Notes: a model not told the origin generated them from the letters alone. A stretch of DNA of 53,846 bases from Escherichia phage mEp554 (PP180005); one strand, 5' to 3'; shown: positions 2,424-44,003, counted from the stretch's first letter. A program made the numbers and translations.

Positions 2424-2854
2424 TATTGCCCCCAGCGTTTTATAAATTCCTCGTTTAACTTCGTATCGCCAGACCACTGAACACCGTGTTCAGCGCCGAA
2501 CGAGTAGATCAGTTCGATTAATTCGCTAAATTCTGCTTTACTCATCCGGCTGGTTGACGTACCAAGCACAACAAAACCTGATTTATCAAGGTTAGGGACA
2601 ACGCCATATTTCTTAAGCCCGGCAGTAAATACCGCTTTCCAGTCTTCAGGGGACAGCTTTTTGCCGTACCAATTAACCTGATCGCTAACGTCTGTCAGCA
2701 GCGCCCAAAGCAACGCGTTTTGACTCAGCGACCGGGTTTTCTCCTGGATGGTAATTACCAGCGGGCTTTTGCTATCTGGCTGGATCTCTCTTATCTGCCT
2801 GACAGCATTTTCTTTCACGGCGTCGTTTACTATCTCAAATCTAATTTGCCTCAT
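2423..2854 (-). CDS. ninB: NinB-family recombination protein
   Basis: 143 aa; VITIQEKTRSLSQNALLWALLTDVSDQVNWYGKKL...GFVVLGTSTSRMSKAEFSELIELI matches lambda NinB closely. Confidence 0.85.
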   Translation of the reverse strand: MRQIRFEIVNDAVKENAVRQIREIQPDSKSPLVITIQEKTRSLSQNALLWALLTDVSDQVNWYGKKLSPEDWKAVFTAGLKKYGVVPNLDKSGFVVLGTSTSRMSKAEFSELIELIYSFGAEHGVQWSGDTKLNEEFIKRWGQ

Positions 2855-3048
2855 GATACACCGTTACTATTTTTCCACTGCGCCCGCGCATACATGATCG
2901 CCCGCAAAGAAATTAGGCGCGAGCTTGTCATAAAAGCGCTTTTTAAGTACCTCATATCAACAACAACAGGCTTATCAGGATCGTCGCTGCGCATGTATTC
3001 CGCAATCGTGCTCAAGTCTTCAACTGTCAATTCCAATTCCCTGTTCAT
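2851..3048 (-). CDS. Hypothetical protein
   Basis: Start at MNRELELTV with AAGGTGG SD. Confidence 0.45.
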   Translation of the reverse strand: MNRELELTVEDLSTIAEYMRSDDPDKPVVVDMRYLKSAFMTSSRLISLRAIMYARAQWKNSNGVS

Positions 3049-3058
3049 GATCGCCACC

Positions 3059-3265
3059 TTACACAATCCGCATTGTGTTTCGTAATTCACCGCGCAACGC
3101 CTGTAAAGCGTAACGAATCGACACAAAAGCCCGGTTAAATTTTACGTGCCTGTATTTGCGCATTAGTGGCGGCGTATAAACCATCGCGCCGCAAGGATCG
3201 CATGGGAATTTAAAGTGAGATTCGTCAATAAACGTTTCAACTGAATAAAAAATTACCCGTCTCAT
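3059..3265 (-). CDS. Hypothetical protein
   Basis: ORF with ATGA start/stop overlap to upstream gene. Confidence 0.4.
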   Translation of the reverse strand: MRRVIFYSVETFIDESHFKFPCDPCGAMVYTPPLMRKYRHVKFNRAFVSIRYALQALRGELRNTMRIV

Positions 3266-38255: not shown

Positions 38256-40604
38256 ATGGCTACCAGTTTAGGTACAATTTATTACGAAGTTGATGCAAAA
38301 ACTGGTCAACTTCTAGTCGCTCAGAGACAGGCGGACCAGGCTTTTGACAGTATCGAGCGTGGCGCAAAACGCGCTGACCGCCAGGTGAACACGCTTAAGA
38401 CTTCAATCAAAGCACTATCCAGGGTCATTCATCTGTTACTTGCTGCGGAGGCTGTGCGCCAGTTTATTGACATGGCGGAGCAAGCAAAAATGCTTCGCGT
38501 AAAAATCAAATTGCTTACAGGTGAAGCGGAGGCAACGGAACGCGTTTTCAACAGACTGAAAGAAATATCAAAAGAAACAGGGCAAAGCCTCAAGGATACT
38601 GGCGACCTGTGGCAAGGGCTTGCTATATCGCTAAAAAACACATCCGCTACTGAAGGCCAGGTCCTCAACCTGGTTAGCACGCTGCAAAAACTCGGCAACC
38701 TGGGCGGCGTGTCTGCGGAACAACTATCAAACTCCATGCGCCAGTTCCGCCAGGCTATTGATGCTGGCGTGTTGCAGGCTGAAGAATTTAACTCAATCCG
38801 TGACAACACCCCAACAATCATACAGGAAATGGCACGCCAAATGGGGTTGTCTATGGGGCAGTTCCGCGCTGAAATGCTGGACGGCAAGATCACGGCTGAA
38901 AGGATGCTCAACGCGATCCAGGCCGCCACGCAGGAAACGAACGAGAAGTTCGCACAGTTGCCGCGCACATCCGGCATGGCCTTCAACGAGCTTAAAGTTG
39001 AGGTTATGGGACTTGTCGAACAGCTAGACGATCTTTTCGGCATATCAGATGGCGTTGTGTCGGCAATAGACTTAATCACTGGTGGCGTTGAGGGATTAGG
39101 TAAAGGCGCAAAATTCGCCGCAACATGTTTCAATACACTAAAAACGGCTGGCAGCGAATTTATCGACATGTTTGATGATGTTGCTGTTAAGGCTGGCGAG
39201 GTGGCGGAAGAGATTATCAGGATGGTAACGCCAATCAAGGCGCTAATGGATGGCTACAAATGGATGAAGGAAATCATTGACAAGCGCAAGGAAGAGCTAA
39301 ATAGCAACAACGAGAAGAAATTTGGCCCTACAGTTGGTAAGGTCATGACGTTTGCAAACGACATTAAAAACGCAACTGCCGCCTATGATGAGTTCATGGA
39401 GAAACAGGGTGAGGCTGACGATGGTAAGATCACGGGATTCGATCAGCCAGTTGGTAAACCGAAAAAAGGTAAAAAGGGCAAAAAAGACAAGAAATCTGAA
39501 GCTGATCGGCTTGGTGATGAAGGTATAAAAGTCTCTGACCAGTACAACAAAGACGCCGCCGCTATGCGTAAAGCACTGGAGAACGGCAAGGCCATTGACG
39601 CCGCATTTGCCCAGGGAAAAATAACCCTCCTTGAGTACAAGGCCGCGCAGAAAGGTATAGGCAAGGAACTGAAGGACGAATTGGCGCAAATCCCTGTTGA
39701 TGAGCTACGCGACAAATGGGACCACATAGTTAGCCCAATGGACCAGCTTAAGGGCGAAATTGACCCAATCAAACAGGCGCAAAATGAATGGGCCGTAAGA
39801 AAGCAAATGCTATTGGACCTGGGCGCTACAGAGGCGCAACAGAGACAGGCGCAATTGGAATACGAACAACAGATCCGGGATCTGAAGTGGGAGCAATGGC
39901 AGGCGCAAAGCGAAACAAACGGACTGATCGGCGCTTGCGTCAGCGGCCTGAAAGGTGGCATGGGCAATGCCCTTACAGGACTGTTAAACGGTACTCAATC
40001 ATTAAGCGAGGTTTTTGCCAACCTGGGAAGTAGCATACTTAACACCGTTGGCAACAAACTATCAGAAATTGCCGCTAACTGGATAGCAGATCAGTTAATG
40101 ATGGAAACACAAAGCAAGGCCACGCAAGCAAGTACCACGGCAGGCGCGGTAGCGGCACAAGGCCAGATTGCAGCGGCGGCGGCCCCGGCAGCGGCGGCTA
40201 CGGCTGCGTCAACTGGTGGTAGCTGGGCGGCGGCTGGTGCTGCGGCGCTTTCTGCGATCATGTCGCTGGCAACGTCAATCTTTGGTGGCGGGCGTTATAA
40301 TGGTGGTTCTGTTAATGGTGGTAGCCTGTATCGAGTAGGGGAACACGGAATACCTGAGCTATTCCAGACGAGCAACGGGCGTCAGTATATGATTCCTGGC
40401 GAAAATGGTAGGGTAATTCCTGGCCGCGATCTCTTCAATGGTGGCGGCATCAATATGCCTGTGCAAATCACAGTTCAGACCACAAACGGATTTAGCGACG
40501 AAGATAGCCGCAGACTTGAGCAGACGATGGAGCGCGTAGCAATGAAAATGATGGCAAGGGAATCGCAACGACCGGGAGGAATGTTGCAACCGCGCCGCAA
40601 ATAA
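38256..40604 (+). CDS. Tail tape measure protein
   Basis: 782 aa, alpha-helical, Ala/Gly-rich C-terminal segment; position. Confidence 0.85.
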   Translation: MATSLGTIYYEVDAKTGQLLVAQRQADQAFDSIERGAKRADRQVNTLKTSIKALSRVIHLLLAAEAVRQFIDMAEQAKMLRVKIKLLTGEAEATERVFNRLKEISKETGQSLKDTGDLWQGLAISLKNTSATEGQVLNLVSTLQKLGNLGGVSAEQLSNSMRQFRQAIDAGVLQAEEFNSIRDNTPTIIQEMARQMGLSMGQFRAEMLDGKITAERMLNAIQAATQETNEKFAQLPRTSGMAFNELKVEVMGLVEQLDDLFGISDGVVSAIDLITGGVEGLGKGAKFAATCFNTLKTAGSEFIDMFDDVAVKAGEVAEEIIRMVTPIKALMDGYKWMKEIIDKRKEELNSNNEKKFGPTVGKVMTFANDIKNATAAYDEFMEKQGEADDGKITGFDQPVGKPKKGKKGKKDKKSEADRLGDEGIKVSDQYNKDAAAMRKALENGKAIDAAFAQGKITLLEYKAAQKGIGKELKDELAQIPVDELRDKWDHIVSPMDQLKGEIDPIKQAQNEWAVRKQMLLDLGATEAQQRQAQLEYEQQIRDLKWEQWQAQSETNGLIGACVSGLKGGMGNALTGLLNGTQSLSEVFANLGSSILNTVGNKLSEIAANWIADQLMMETQSKATQASTTAGAVAAQGQIAAAAAPAAAATAASTGGSWAAAGAAALSAIMSLATSIFGGGRYNGGSVNGGSLYRVGEHGIPELFQTSNGRQYMIPGENGRVIPGRDLFNGGGINMPVQITVQTTNGFSDEDSRRLEQTMERVAMKMMARESQRPGGMLQPRRK

Positions 40605-40610
40605 ACAAAA

Positions 40611-40638
40611 CCCCGGTACAATGCCGGGGTTATCTTTT
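40611..40638 (+). terminator. Rho-independent terminator after tape measure gene
   Basis: CCCCGG-TACAATG-CCGGGG hairpin plus TTATCTTTT. Confidence 0.6.
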
Positions 40639-40913
40639 AGTTATTCTCAAATCTTGTATATCCTCTCTCAATTTTCCCTCCGTGTACACTTCTGGCAAAT
40701 ACCGCGTCAGTATACCTGAAAAATGGACATGTATATGTATCCCCTTTGCTATCCATATATTTTAGCACCCATGCCATACGTTTTACATTGCTTTTATTTG
40801 CCGGGTTTTTCATTTTATTTTCCTCCGCAAATCACAACCTGCCGTTTCTTGCTATGTAGCTGCGAGCAAACATCACCTGCCAGATGTTCCAGATCTCCCG
40901 CCACGTAAATTCA

Positions 40914-41063
40914 TCATCTTCCATATCTCACACCATCGCGCTTGTATGGTTCGCCATCAGCAAACGGGATTAACTCATCGTTTGCCACCATTCGATTGAA
41001 CCAGTCTTTCAGAGCAACCAGGGAGAACCGGATCCCGTAACTGTGCAATTCGCGCCACCTCAT
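40914..41063 (-). CDS. Hypothetical small protein (49 aa), third gene of minus-strand cassette
   Basis: ATGA overlap with upstream stop. Confidence 0.3.
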   Translation of the reverse strand: MRWRELHSYGIRFSLVALKDWFNRMVANDELIPFADGEPYKRDGVRYGR

Positions 41064-41314
41064 TTATGTGCCCCTTTCACTCCACAATGTCGGTTGTATT
41101 CAAGGTGGTCAATAATTAGCCAAACCTTCAAATCTTCACTGAACAGCCGCCAATCAGGGTTTATGTCCATCTTGTAACCGTAACCATCGCGTAACTTTTT
41201 GGGGTAAACCTCTTTTTTAAGAAAAGCATCAAGTAATTGTTTTCCTTTCTTGATGATCCGTTCTTGGGCGTTTTTCTGTGCTTTCAGGTTTTTGCCAATC
41301 ATTACCAATTTCAT
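41060..41314 (-). CDS. RelE/HigB-superfamily toxin-like protein (tentative)
   Basis: GYGYKMDINPDWRLFSEDLKVWLIIDH resembles the conserved core of RelE/ParE/HigB-fold toxins; lysine-rich N-terminus. Confidence 0.4.
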   Translation of the reverse strand: MKLVMIGKNLKAQKNAQERIIKKGKQLLDAFLKKEVYPKKLRDGYGYKMDINPDWRLFSEDLKVWLIIDHLEYNRHCGVKGAHK

Positions 41315-41334
41315 AACTCACCCCACGCAATCAA

Positions 41335-41490
41335 TCAGTTGACCACTTTCAGGAAGAAATCACGGTATTCATCTTCTTTTGCATTCATCATGAATTGACC
41401 GTATTTGAACGCATCATCAAAACCCTTCACAATCGCAACTTCCACCTGTTCGAATGCTTTGTTTAGCATTACCACTACATAGCGTTCCAT
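41335..41490 (-). CDS. Hypothetical small protein (51 aa), first gene of cassette (antitoxin candidate)
   Basis: AAGGGGG SD before MERYVVVML. Confidence 0.35.
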   Translation of the reverse strand: MERYVVVMLNKAFEQVEVAIVKGFDDAFKYGQFMMNAKEDEYRDFFLKVVN

Positions 41491-41659
41491 ATTGGCCCCC
41501 TTTGTTGGTACTGCTTTCTCTTCTTGCTTTCTGTATACATCTTGTTGCGTCCTGTGTGAAGCCATTTCGTAAACTGGGTATAATTCTTGTGACGAAGTTC
41601 TCATTTTTCGCGTAGAAGCGCGTAAAGATGTATGCAATATGTAACTTATAGGGGGAATC

Positions 41660-42013
41660 ATGCCGGAAGTTTTCAGATGGACGCCGCAAAGAAGCTACAG
41701 CGTGACCAGGGAACCAAATGTGTCGGTCGTTAAACTTGGTGATGGTTATGAACAGCGCCAGGCGAAAGGGATTAACACGTTGCTTGATAGCTACACCCTG
41801 GTTTTTAAAGGCAGTAGCGCAGGATGCGGTGATAGTGGGAACGTGGCGATCCAGGCAGAAGCATTCTTGAGGGCGCGCGGCGCTGTCGAGGCTTTTTACT
41901 GGTCGCCGTCTATGGATGGTGTGCAAAGGCTTTTTGTTTGCCGTAGCTGGAGTATGACAAAGGACGGGCCTGTATACACGCTAAACGCAACATTTGAGCA
42001 AGTTGTTGGCTAG
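41660..42013 (+). CDS. Minor tail protein M
   Basis: 117 aa; lambda gpM-like size, position and recalled sequence character. Confidence 0.7.
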   Translation: MPEVFRWTPQRSYSVTREPNVSVVKLGDGYEQRQAKGINTLLDSYTLVFKGSSAGCGDSGNVAIQAEAFLRARGAVEAFYWSPSMDGVQRLFVCRSWSMTKDGPVYTLNATFEQVVG

Positions 42014-42024
42014 TGGGGGTTAAT

Positions 42025-42210
42025 ATGTACGGGACTTGTGTAGTTGACAAAACTGACGCATTTACATTATTTGACGACTATGAGATCAACGACCTTACTG
42101 TAAAGGCTGACAATGGCGATACATGGTATCTTCATGATGTTGGTGACGGGTATGTGGGATGCAGATCCAGGGAAGGCAAGGAGGTTTTATTTTTGGTTGA
42201 TGGCGTGTAA
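42025..42210 (+). CDS. Hypothetical small protein
   Basis: GGGGG SD; inserted between M and L. Confidence 0.4.
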   Translation: MYGTCVVDKTDAFTLFDDYEINDLTVKADNGDTWYLHDVGDGYVGCRSREGKEVLFLVDGV

Positions 42211-42216
42211 TAACAA

Positions 42217-42240
42217 CCCCGCTTCGTGCGGGGTTTTCTT
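42217..42240. terminator. Bidirectional rho-independent terminator, copy 1 of duplicated module
   Basis: CCCCGC-TTCGT-GCGGGG hairpin with T-run; 37/38 nt shared with 50715-50751. Confidence 0.65.
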
Positions 42241-42241
42241 G

Positions 42242-42379
42242 TTAGTAGTGAATATACAGCAAACTCATTGGGTGAGCGTGCGCCATATTATTGGCTATCG
42301 CCGCCCAGTCCCAATCTGCAGCATGAGCGCCAAATACTATCAGTCCCATTATTATTAGCGCCAAAACTTCTATTTTCAT
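42242..42379 (-). CDS. Small secreted protein with signal peptide (45 aa)
   Basis: MKIEVLALIIMGLIVFGAHA then ADWDWAAIANNMAHAHPMSLLYIHY. Confidence 0.4.
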   Translation of the reverse strand: MKIEVLALIIMGLIVFGAHAADWDWAAIANNMAHAHPMSLLYIHY

Positions 42380-42389
42380 AATCTGTCAC

Positions 42390-42638
42390 CTATAAGTTAT
42401 CACGCAGATAATTAACGCCCTTATCAGTGACGAATGAATGATTAACCTGGTTTTCATCCGTCATAATGATGAATAACTTTTCTTGTAGGTACTTAGCTTT
42501 CGGGTACAACGTTAAACAAACCTGATACAAAATCCCGCGCTCAATCAGCAAATCAATAAATTCGTGTTCATGATAACCGATGATGCGGGCGGCCTGTTTC
42601 AACGTGTACACATAATCACCGTGATTGCGCCGCCCCAT
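42390..42638 (-). CDS. Small DNA-binding-like protein (KilA-C-like HTH, tentative)
   Basis: YTLKQAARIIGYHEHEFIDLLIERGIL resembles KilA-C segment of the antirepressor at 6482-7225. Confidence 0.45.
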   Translation of the reverse strand: MGRRNHGDYVYTLKQAARIIGYHEHEFIDLLIERGILYQVCLTLYPKAKYLQEKLFIIMTDENQVNHSFVTDKGVNYLRDNL

Positions 42639-42647
42639 GCTGCCGCC

Positions 42648-42998
42648 TTATTTATCGAATGCGCTCAGGTTATCGATGCAGAAGTCTTTCGCAGCTTTTT
42701 CGTATTCGCGTTTTGCTTGCGGATTGTCTGCCGGGAAACCTTTTGCGTGTATTTCACCAGGGCAAGCCTGATCCATAGAATCTGCAAAGTTAACATTGGC
42801 GTTGAAGTTAATATCTTTCGGGTTCATCTCTTCCACCTTATCCGGCACTTGTACAGGAATAACATAATAATCACGAGCATTAGACCAACAGCGGAGCAAT
42901 TCGCAACCTTCATTGCGCGCTGATTCGAATGTGTCAAATAGTCCCATGCTTTCCCATTCACATTTATCAGTCCACACGTCTAATCTGTATTTTTTCAT
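42648..42998 (-). CDS. Hypothetical protein
   Basis: ORF in minus-strand moron operon; start uncertain. Confidence 0.45.
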   Translation of the reverse strand: MKKYRLDVWTDKCEWESMGLFDTFESARNEGCELLRCWSNARDYYVIPVQVPDKVEEMNPKDINFNANVNFADSMDQACPGEIHAKGFPADNPQAKREYEKAAKDFCIDNLSAFDK

Positions 42999-43170
42999 TT
43001 TTTGCTACAACCTCCCATTTGACAGGTTCGATCCTGTACCCCAAAACGCGTTCGTCTTCAGCGAGTAAGAGCGCGTCGGTAAGTGCCTCGCCTTCATCTT
43101 TATACAGGGCCACAGTCATTTTCCTGCCATCCGCAAGGAACACCGTCAACCTCCACACCTTATCATCCAT
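42967..43170 (-). CDS. Hypothetical protein, first gene of moron operon
   Basis: GGAGGTG SD before MDDKVWRL. Confidence 0.45.
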   Translation of the reverse strand: MDDKVWRLTVFLADGRKMTVALYKDEGEALTDALLLAEDERVLGYRIEPVKWEVVAKNEKIQIRRVD

Positions 43171-43216
43171 TTCACACCTCCGCGCCATTTTGTTAATCAT
43201 GCTTCCTTTTGAGTAC

Positions 43217-43245
43217 AATATACATACTGTAAAAAACGCGATCAA
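43217..43245 (-). promoter_or_regulatory. Sigma70-like promoter for minus-strand moron operon
   Basis: Minus strand TTGATC-N17-TATATT. Confidence 0.4.
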
Positions 43246-43264
43246 CCGTTTTGGTATGATTTAG

Positions 43265-43280
43265 CGTGATGGCGATCACA
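43265..43280. promoter_or_regulatory. CRP-like palindrome CGTGATGGCGATCACA
   Basis: GTGA-N6-TCACA centred about 62 bp upstream of predicted minus-strand TSS; 19 nt upstream of L start. Confidence 0.35.
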
Positions 43281-43298
43281 AAATGACAAGGTGATAAA

Positions 43299-44003
43299 AT
43301 GCGCAACATACCTACAGAGATGATTATTGATTCCGTCGATGCCGGAGTCGGCGCTGTAATTGACTTGTTTGAATTAGACCTCACGCCCCTGGGTGGCGAG
43401 GTTATCCGCTTCCATTCCGGCGCTAATGGCTATTACGGCCCGGTTATCTGGAAGGGCTTGGCTTACAACAGCTACCCGATCGAGGCTACTGGCTTCGAAA
43501 TGAAAAACGAAGGTGTTTACTCACGCCCACAAATGGTAGTGGCAAACATTGGCGGCCTAATCACTGGGATGAATAACGATTTTAACGACCTGCGAGGAAT
43601 GAAGGTTACGCGCCGCCAGGTGGAAGTAAAATACCTGGACGCCGTCAACTTCCCCAATGGCAACCCGGATGCAGATCCATCTATTGAGGCTGTATCTTTT
43701 TACGTCGTTGAGGCGATGAGCGAAGAAACAGCCGACCAGGTGCAATATGAACTGTCAACGCCAATTGACGCTGACAAGGCGGTTATTCCAGGGCGCACAA
43801 TCCTCGCTGACGTTTGCCAATGGCAATACCGTGGCGACGGTTGCGGATACAGTGGCGGCCCTGTAGCTACTGAAAAAGACGAATCGACCAGCGATCCTAA
43901 GCTGGATAAGTGCAGCCACCGCCTGAGCGGTTGCCGTTTGCGTTTTCCGCGCCCGAACCCGTTACCAATTTCATGTTTCCCTGGATCAAGCAAGGTCGGT
44001 TAA
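43299..44003 (+). CDS. Minor tail protein L
   Basis: 234 aa; C-terminal CQWQYRGDGCGY...CSHRLSGCRLRF cysteine cluster as in lambda gpL. Confidence 0.8.
   Translation: MRNIPTEMIIDSVDAGVGAVIDLFELDLTPLGGEVIRFHSGANGYYGPVIWKGLAYNSYPIEATGFEMKNEGVYSRPQMVVANIGGLITGMNNDFNDLRGMKVTRRQVEVKYLDAVNFPNGNPDADPSIEAVSFYVVEAMSEETADQVQYELSTPIDADKAVIPGRTILADVCQWQYRGDGCGYSGGPVATEKDESTSDPKLDKCSHRLSGCRLRFPRPNPLPISCFPGSSKVG

Follow-up and report, generated by a model that had tools for sequence, protein, structure and literature searches.

An antisense island of small genes at the tape-measure/M junction of Escherichia phage mEp554 and the predicted RelE/ParE-superfamily fold of its one fixed product

RegB of phage T4 is an endoribonuclease of RelE/YoeB-like fold that cuts early mRNAs at GGAG and has no antitoxin. 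Gp15 of HK97, a membrane superinfection-exclusion protein, is the product of a moron at the equivalent of the junction between the tape measure gene and an M-type tail gene, and the bor gene of phage lambda is an antisense gene of the late region. The locus that is compared here with these systems lies in Escherichia phage mEp554 (PP180005; 53,846 nucleotides of one strand, the whole of which is referred to as the window). An antisense island of ~1.05 kb (40609-41659, minus strand) interrupts the tail operon between the tape measure gene (38256-40604, plus strand; a 782-amino-acid (aa) protein, so annotated in relatives) and gene M (41660-42013, plus strand; a lambda-M-type minor tail protein, Pfam Phage_min_tail, E 6e-29). 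It opens with a constrained leader, continues with five tightly packed small genes for proteins of 51, 84, 49, 30 and 58 aa, and closes with a bidirectional terminator. The sole fixed gene of the island is the one for the 84-aa protein (41060-41314, minus strand), which is basic (isoelectric point (pI) 9.78) and is predicted to have a RelE/ParE-superfamily fold. The reading that is favoured here, tentatively and with a little less than even confidence, is that of an antisense moron island at the tape-measure/M junction whose 84-aa protein is a stand-alone effector and not the toxin of an obligatory pair.

The 84-aa protein is a further member of a known, uncharacterised family, and its fold assignment is already contained in Pfam and RefSeq. 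Residues 19-75 match Pfam PF24732, "ParE-like toxin domain", over profile positions 2-67 of 67 (45.5 bits, E 7.7e-12; the curated gathering threshold is 24.4 bits), as do all 22 aligned relatives. The protein falls in PHROG 1525, and near-identical prophage copies in RefSeq E. coli genomes are named 'ParE family toxin-like protein'. A search of the literature on PF24732, on ParE-like toxins in phages and on mEp021 found no study of the 84-aa gene and none on the family. PDB chains searched with the 84-aa sequence (phmmer) and with the family profile (hmmsearch) yielded nothing relevant.

With close relatives alone, AlphaFold produces an unusable model (predicted local distance difference test (pLDDT) 57); with 22 diverse family members the model reaches pLDDT 89.7 and a predicted template modelling score of 0.78. 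In it two strands (residues 3-5 and 10-13) precede a first helix (18-32), and three more strands (47-50, 55-59 and 65-69) precede a second one (70-77). Foldseek puts YoeB at the head of its list (probability 0.98, template modelling (TM) score 0.49), with RNase-type toxins placed slightly above ParE; among viral models (BFVD) the best matches come from jumbo phages, namely the "ParE-like toxin domain" proteins of fHe-Yen9-04 and RaK2 (TM 0.74-0.86). A RelE/ParE-superfamily fold, of moderate similarity to its described members, is thereby predicted for the 84-aa protein. An earlier note on this DNA, which had named a profile search and a structure prediction as checks, had guessed at a RelE/HigB-like fold for the middle protein of three from the motif GYGYKMDINPDWRLFSEDLKVWLIIDH. 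The motif is indeed there, as residues 44-70, and the guess is borne out by a confident model of the RelE/ParE type and by the first place of YoeB. The profile search divides: it returns the ParE-like family PF24732 and, at E up to 10 in Pfam, nothing else, so that ParE_toxin, HigB and YafQ are without a match.

Within the family alignment K40, L41 and R56 are invariant and K23, G44, H70, Y73 and N74 nearly so. A parallel can be drawn by eye between KKLR-G..YK...-DWRL-...-H..Y of the 84-aa protein and KLRG..YK.K..-GYRL-...-R...Y of RelE. The catalytic positions concerned are K52, R61, R81 and Y87 of RelE and R65, H83 and Y84 of YoeB; their equivalence to residues of the 84-aa protein is one of motif alignment by eye.

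The region of the window around the island is 88-93% identical to Escherichia phages mEp010, mEp044, mEp515, mEp013, MagusPhagus and mEp021. These phages belong to the mEpimmI group, whose members are temperate, non-lambdoid and Nus-dependent coliphages (PMC11893012). Comparison was made across 52 related loci: 46 IMG/VR contigs, together with six phages and a number of E. coli prophages. Every one of the 52 has the 84-aa open reading frame (ORF) open over its full length (33 distinct sequences; the first residues differ in a single locus, L047). The 51-aa ORF is open in 49 of them (17 distinct sequences), 30 have an intact 30-aa ORF (19 distinct sequences, with mEp010, mEp021 and mEp515 among its carriers), and the 49-aa ORF is present in 10. 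Ratios of nonsynonymous to synonymous substitution (dN/dS, by the method of Nei and Gojobori) across these loci are 0.07 for the 51-aa, 0.08 for the 84-aa, 0.10 for the 49-aa and 0.03 for the 30-aa ORF, and 0.08 for tail gene M. These four small ORFs are protein-coding genes under purifying selection.

Retrieval of loci through M alone, which does not presuppose the 84-aa gene, gives the same picture. Viral contigs with an M at least 84% identical all carry the 84-aa gene (31/31), and 29 of the 31 carry the 51-aa gene and 16 the 30-aa gene; the 84-aa gene is in none of 49 contigs whose M is 67-71% identical. (The distance between tape measure gene and M is 685-1397 bp in the mEp021 group; in those 49 contigs it is often 3-9 bp and otherwise 170-500 bp.) On these figures the tape-measure/M junction is an insertion hotspot. 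What is fixed in the insertion of this phage group is the 84-aa gene, and gene content downstream of that gene is mosaic. The island sits between genes that are adjacent in relatives and has its own terminator and a promoter that is read from conserved hexamers, which is what marks a moron; the fixation of the 84-aa gene across the whole phage group is atypical of one. Copies of the 84-aa gene that are truncated to 47-61 aa or frameshifted occur in several E. coli prophages (P0033-P0037, P0039 and P0040; strains Ecol_244 and LSU61); these could reflect ordinary prophage decay or selection against the gene.

The usual neighbour of the 84-aa gene on its upstream side is the 51-aa gene (41335-41490, minus strand), encoding an acidic protein (pI 4.85). 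The two are separated by 20 nt, which hold GGGGTGAG ahead of the 84-aa start. The 51-aa gene is dispensable: it is exactly missing from two loci, L020 and L028, in both of which the 84-aa gene is intact, retains all family-conserved residues and has its ATG joined straight to the ribosome-binding site of the leader. L028 is 100% identical to the prophage of a sequenced strain, E. coli UMNK88. Since L020 and the UMNK88 prophage genome are only 94.5% identical, the absence is a property of a lineage rather than an assembly artefact, and these genomes argue that the 84-aa gene is tolerated without the 51-aa gene. Alleles of the two genes do not co-vary. A single 51-aa sequence, found in 21 loci, is paired with 84-aa proteins of clades A1, A2 and B, which are 58-88% identical to the copy in the window, and the correlation between 51-aa and 84-aa pairwise distances is r = 0.24.

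Searches of the 51-, 49- and 30-aa proteins against Pfam, NCBIfam and PADLOC detect no antitoxin or DNA-binding domain (ribbon-helix-helix, helix-turn-helix, Phd/YefM, AbrB, RelB or ParD). None of the five island proteins is matched in NCBIfam or PADLOC, and nothing meaningful is matched by the 51- and 49-aa proteins among PDB sequences. The 51-aa protein is matched over 51/51 residues by phrog_29810. Its homologues among 5.8 billion protein clusters are all at least 76% identical and all come from mEp021-type phages and prophages; on these sequence comparisons it is an ORFan confined to this phage group. No neighbour accompanies the 84-aa gene throughout (the counts are 49/52 for the 51-aa gene, 10/52 for the 49-aa ORF and 30/52 for an intact 30-aa ORF), and the neighbours of distant homologues are unrelated. 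By these comparative tests the three genes do not form a module and no neighbour is an obligatory partner.

The earlier note had placed the three ORFs of 51, 84 and 49 aa on the minus strand in the gap between tape measure gene and M, with an ATGA shared by the 84-aa stop and the 49-aa start. All of this stands, the location through flanking-gene annotation and Pfam. Its delimitation of a three-gene cassette does not, in that the unit runs on through the 30- and 58-aa ORFs to the terminator and the 49-aa ORF is present in so few loci. Nor is its proposal of a toxin-antitoxin-like module of three ORFs supported, given the rarity of the 49-aa ORF, the two genomes without the 51-aa gene, the want of co-variation and the failure to find an antitoxin domain.

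The wider PF24732 family is small by HMMER: an exhaustive search of representatives yields 11 hits at E <1e-3, to which further members were added by profile search and tblastn. (A scan of genome contigs gave one match, an AhpC/TSA protein and a false positive.) Members are found in Klebsiella phage IME279 and, surrounded by small genes unrelated to one another, in Sortsnevirus and in jumbo phages of the Asteriusvirus and Alcyoneusvirus types; all of these phages are presumably virulent. The neighbours of the phage copies are homologous neither to one another nor to the 51-aa protein, save for a syntenic gene of 116-131 aa within the jumbo phages. One member, on a metagenomic contig, adjoins a T7 gp0.4-like gene, and another lies on a 41-kb Klebsiella plasmid, as one of a row of small genes not far from a gene for an S24 peptidase. 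Pfam scores are highest, at 73-74 bits, for 82-aa proteins encoded on plasmids of Pantoea and Duffyella. Members on Pantoea, Duffyella and Citrobacter plasmids (L065 2501-2749, L066 812-1060 and L149 2001-2249; the first two Pfam-confirmed, the last, from Citrobacter, a weak tblastn match) are part of a conserved backbone of the ICEclc/SPI-7 type, in the order ParB family protein, DUF2857, PF24732 protein, STY4528-family replication protein and PFL_4669-family protein of integrative and conjugative elements (ICEs). No small ORF is annotated alongside these backbone copies, and in the Citrobacter element the start of the PF24732 gene overlaps the DUF2857 stop by 4 nt. The ParB and DUF2857 proteins constitute BisDC, the master activator of ICEclc transfer competence (PMC7423338). 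Judged from these sequence contexts, PF24732 recurs in mobile elements as a single gene and is not recognisable as the toxin of a toxin-antitoxin pair.

The closest outgroup homologue, 51% identical, is on an otherwise unrelated 5.8-kb metagenomic contig of small genes (SRR25667327_70150; locus L010), where the upstream gene is unrelated to that of the window. The same contig carries, on the same strand and in another order, genes weakly homologous to two further island ORFs, those of 30 aa (55% over 29 aa) and 58 aa (49% over 45 aa; the intervals are 175-261, 378-512 and 2838-3104). The small genes of the island may, to judge by this contig, travel together.

The 169-nt divergent leader (41491-41659, minus strand) between M and the 51-aa gene is constrained: any two leaders differ by 0.14 on average, and the genes on either side by 0.46-0.48 at synonymous sites. 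It contains the hexamers TTCACA (41560-41555) and TATACA (41537-41532), separated by a 17-nt spacer. Across 51 leaders both hexamers are conserved and the spacer between them is variable; the second hexamer is TATATA in 30 of the 51. They constitute the -35 and -10 elements of a candidate σ70 promoter. The leader also has an inverted pair of AAGATGTATRCA (41532-41543 and 41625-41636, 81 nt apart), one arm of which overlaps the candidate -10 box. Exact copies of AAGATGTATRCA in the window number these two alone; with up to 2 mismatches there are 19, against 9.7 expected. The pair is a possible operator. A role of the leader as a structured RNA or RNA antitoxin was rejected: a search of Rfam over 40400-43400 at E up to 1 finds no match, folding of the leader against shuffled controls (z-score -0.66) indicates no significant RNA fold, and the long inverted repeat presents no convincing compensatory change. 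An N-terminal extension of the 51-aa ORF was also rejected. (In the window an in-frame ORF of 108 aa extends upstream of the 51-aa start, and gene callers give 68-89 aa; in mEp021 a 1-nt indel breaks this frame, and a strong ribosome-binding site precedes the 51-aa start.)

A classic type II pair, in which the 51-aa protein would be the labile antitoxin of an 84-aa toxin of the RelE/ParE type, the two being co-transcribed from the prophage and serving abortive infection or prophage retention, is unlikely, without being far-fetched. The locus has much of the appearance of such a pair: the antitoxin-first order, the short spacer with its ribosome-binding site and the opposite pI of the two proteins (4.85 and 9.78) are as they should be, adjacency is kept in 49 of 52 loci, both genes are under purifying selection, and the predicted fold of the 84-aa protein is a toxin fold. 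The antisense orientation, together with an own leader and terminator, fits a moron expressed in the lysogen, and the inverted repeat over the candidate -10 box could be the operator of a pair. What speaks against the pair is that L020 and the UMNK88 prophage lack the 51-aa gene and keep an intact 84-aa gene behind the same ribosome-binding site, that the alleles do not co-vary, and that the 51-aa protein has neither a known antitoxin or DNA-binding domain nor a homologue beside distant family members. The L010 homologue, half identical in sequence, likewise has an unrelated upstream gene. If the partner were instead encoded downstream, as in HigBA, it would be the 49-aa protein or the 30-aa micro-protein. 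The ATGA overlap couples the first of these to the 84-aa gene; in loci that lack the 49-aa ORF, the 84-aa gene is followed within ~10 nt by the 30-aa ORF, and this latter ORF is acidic, strongly conserved (dN/dS 0.03) and retained in both genomes that are without the 51-aa gene. A toxin-first module is nevertheless very improbable. The 49-aa protein is close to refuted as a partner by its distribution (10 of 52 loci, in three of which an HNH gene intervenes), the 30-aa ORF is missing or truncated in ~20 of the 52, all with an intact 84-aa gene, and neither protein has a family match.

A third explanation dispenses with toxicity altogether and makes of the 84-aa protein a small regulator or adaptor that would serve mobile elements by binding protein or nucleic acid, without killing cells or cleaving RNA, or a ParE-like modulator of DNA gyrase. 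Family members that are backbone genes right after bisDC-type regulator genes in ICEclc/SPI-7-type elements, one of them with the start/stop overlap seen in Citrobacter, are consistent with it, as is the universality of the gene in the mEpimmI group, which is what would be expected of a life-cycle function. The gene is, moreover, tolerated without a partner, and the name chosen by the Pfam curators is ParE-like. The set of conserved Arg, His, Tyr and Asn residues, however, points to an active site rather than to a scaffold, RNase-type toxins outscore ParE in the fold comparison, and Pfam ParE_toxin is not matched; non-toxic use of the fold is improbable.

The favoured reading, a moron island with a stand-alone effector, can be set out as follows. 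The island would be driven against late transcription by its own promoter, at ~41532-41560. Since transcription of the island opposes that of the late operon, its expression would fall mainly in the lysogen or in the first phase of an infection, at times of silence of the tail operon. The 84-aa protein would act alone, by way of the family-conserved residues K23, K40, R56, H70, Y73 and N74. Its likeliest activity would be binding or cleavage of ribosome-associated RNA, comparable to that of T4 RegB; this is proposed because the conserved residues fall, by motif, at the RNA-cleaving positions of RelE and YoeB. The acidic 51-aa protein may modulate the 84-aa protein and would not be needed for its toleration, and the 49-aa ORF would be an unrelated accessory gene. 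PF24732 as a whole is possibly, if on balance doubtfully, an antitoxin-independent branch of the RelE/ParE fold that serves the life cycle of the mobile elements themselves and not addiction. If so, PF24732 would act on RNA of the host or the element, or on regulation, in much the manner of RegB, with the 51-aa protein as a modulator peculiar to its lineage.

Several points weigh against this reading. Nearly all characterised proteins of RelE/ParE fold are toxins of type II pairs, and the layout of an acidic 51-aa protein, a 20-nt spacer with ribosome-binding site and a basic 84-aa protein is preserved in 49 of the 52 loci. Both the promoter and the expression of the island are read from the nucleotide sequence, and a stricter scan for consensus promoters does not report the TTCACA/TATACA pair. 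The correspondence of R56, H70 and Y73 to catalytic residues of RelE and YoeB is a by-eye motif alignment. Comparison of the family profile with E. coli YoeB, RelE and YafQ by hhalign gave probabilities of <1%, which are not significant. Because there is no sequence or profile match to the classical families, to PDB sequences or to these three toxins, the tie to the classical toxins is one of fold only. Finally, no locus is without both the 51-aa and the 30-aa gene, so that redundant neutralisers are conceivable; this carries no weight because, with three and about twenty absences respectively, ~1 such locus would be expected by chance.

The remainder of the island is variable. Its distal end is a bidirectional intrinsic terminator (40609-40631, both strands), which closes the tape measure gene on the plus strand and the island on the minus strand. 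The terminator scan identifies it as the hairpin AACCCCGG...CCGGGGTT with a T-run after it on either strand, and it carries a terminator annotation in mEp010, mEp515 and mEp021. The final gene of the island, the 58-aa ORF (40637-40813, minus strand), occurs in roughly one of every two related loci; its product is basic (pI 9.8) and finds no family match in Pfam, PHROG, NCBIfam or PADLOC. The 30-aa ORF MEDDEFTWREIWNIWQVMFARSYIARNGRL (40832-40924, minus strand), overlooked in the first reading of this DNA, encodes a micro-protein and overlaps the end of the 49-aa ORF (40914-41063, minus strand). The latter, an accessory gene, rides on a segment of ~130 bp that mEp010 and mEp021 lack.

Without the 49-aa ORF, mEp010 (L001) and mEp021 (L002) retain its first codons, as the mini-ORF ATG AGG TGA. 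Both ends of the missing segment (41056-41066 and 40925-40935 of the window) end in GGTG, which suggests loss by deletion through 4-nt microhomology. GAGGTG at the resulting junction in these two phages then acts as ribosome-binding site of the 30-aa ORF. In three loci, those of mEp515 (L007 1062-1568), the prophage of E. coli E21845 (L009 1560-2042) and L053, a gene for an HNH endonuclease parts the 84-aa gene from the 49-aa ORF. It is inserted exactly there and overlaps the end of the 84-aa gene, which suggests an insertion of the homing-endonuclease type; such insertion may explain the coming and going of the 49-aa ORF. In mEp021 (L002 1085-2419) the distal part of the island is swapped for a repetitive zinc-ribbon-domain gene and a 157-aa gene, and because of this replacement the region distal to the 84-aa gene can be thought of as a variable cargo slot.

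A second antisense island is found at the M/L junction of the window (42242-43264, minus strand), with ORFs of 45, 82, 116 and 92 aa. It is flanked by a 65-aa ORF that follows M (42013-42210) and a terminator (42215-42235) on one side, and by the gene of tail protein L (43299-44003) on the other. Its 82-aa protein (42390-42638) matches the phage antirepressor KilAC domain (Pfam ANT, E 4e-7); the 45-, 116- and 92-aa proteins are without a Pfam match. The distance from M to L is ~1.2-1.9 kb in all loci of the mEp021 group but one, and often 45 bp in more distant phages.

Annotated on its own, the 84-aa gene is one more prophage ParE-like gene, and ordinary; what is added is the comparative result. 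It serves as a caution, in that a RelE/ParE fold and a small upstream ORF are not enough to call a toxin-antitoxin system where natural genomes carry the supposed toxin alone. It is also a lead to an uncharacterised family of predicted RelE/ParE fold that is fixed in a prevalent group of gut coliphages and recurs in jumbo phages and, beside a master regulator, in ICE backbones.

Compared with PF24732 (PHROG 1525), the 84-aa protein is a plain member and differs in nothing at the family level; members are carried by phages and ICE backbones, where they form no recognisable toxin-antitoxin pairs. With the mRNA interferases RelE, YoeB, YafQ and HigB it has in common its size, its strongly basic character and the pattern of motifs that can be traced by eye. 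It differs from them in having no significant sequence or profile similarity and no conserved cognate antitoxin gene beside its own; the model has one N-terminal helix and a β-hairpin where these toxins have two helices. ParE of ParDE (the gyrase poison of RK2-type plasmid stabilisation) is further removed, since its Pfam family is not matched, its fold score is lower than that of the RNase branch, and no ParD-like (ribbon-helix-helix) gene neighbours the 84-aa gene. As a genetic unit the island is comparable with the morons of HK97 gp15 and bor: it shares with gp15 the insertion site between tape measure and M-type gene, and it is autonomous, with a terminator and a probable promoter, at a junction at which related phages have no insertion or different ones. 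It has no sequence relation to gp15 and consists of five soluble-looking small proteins, and it is fixed in the whole phage group, unlike the typical moron, which is sporadic. RegB of T4 provides the precedent for a phage-encoded member of this fold that works without an antitoxin, a likeness that fits the presence of the PF24732 family in presumably virulent phages, jumbo phages among them.

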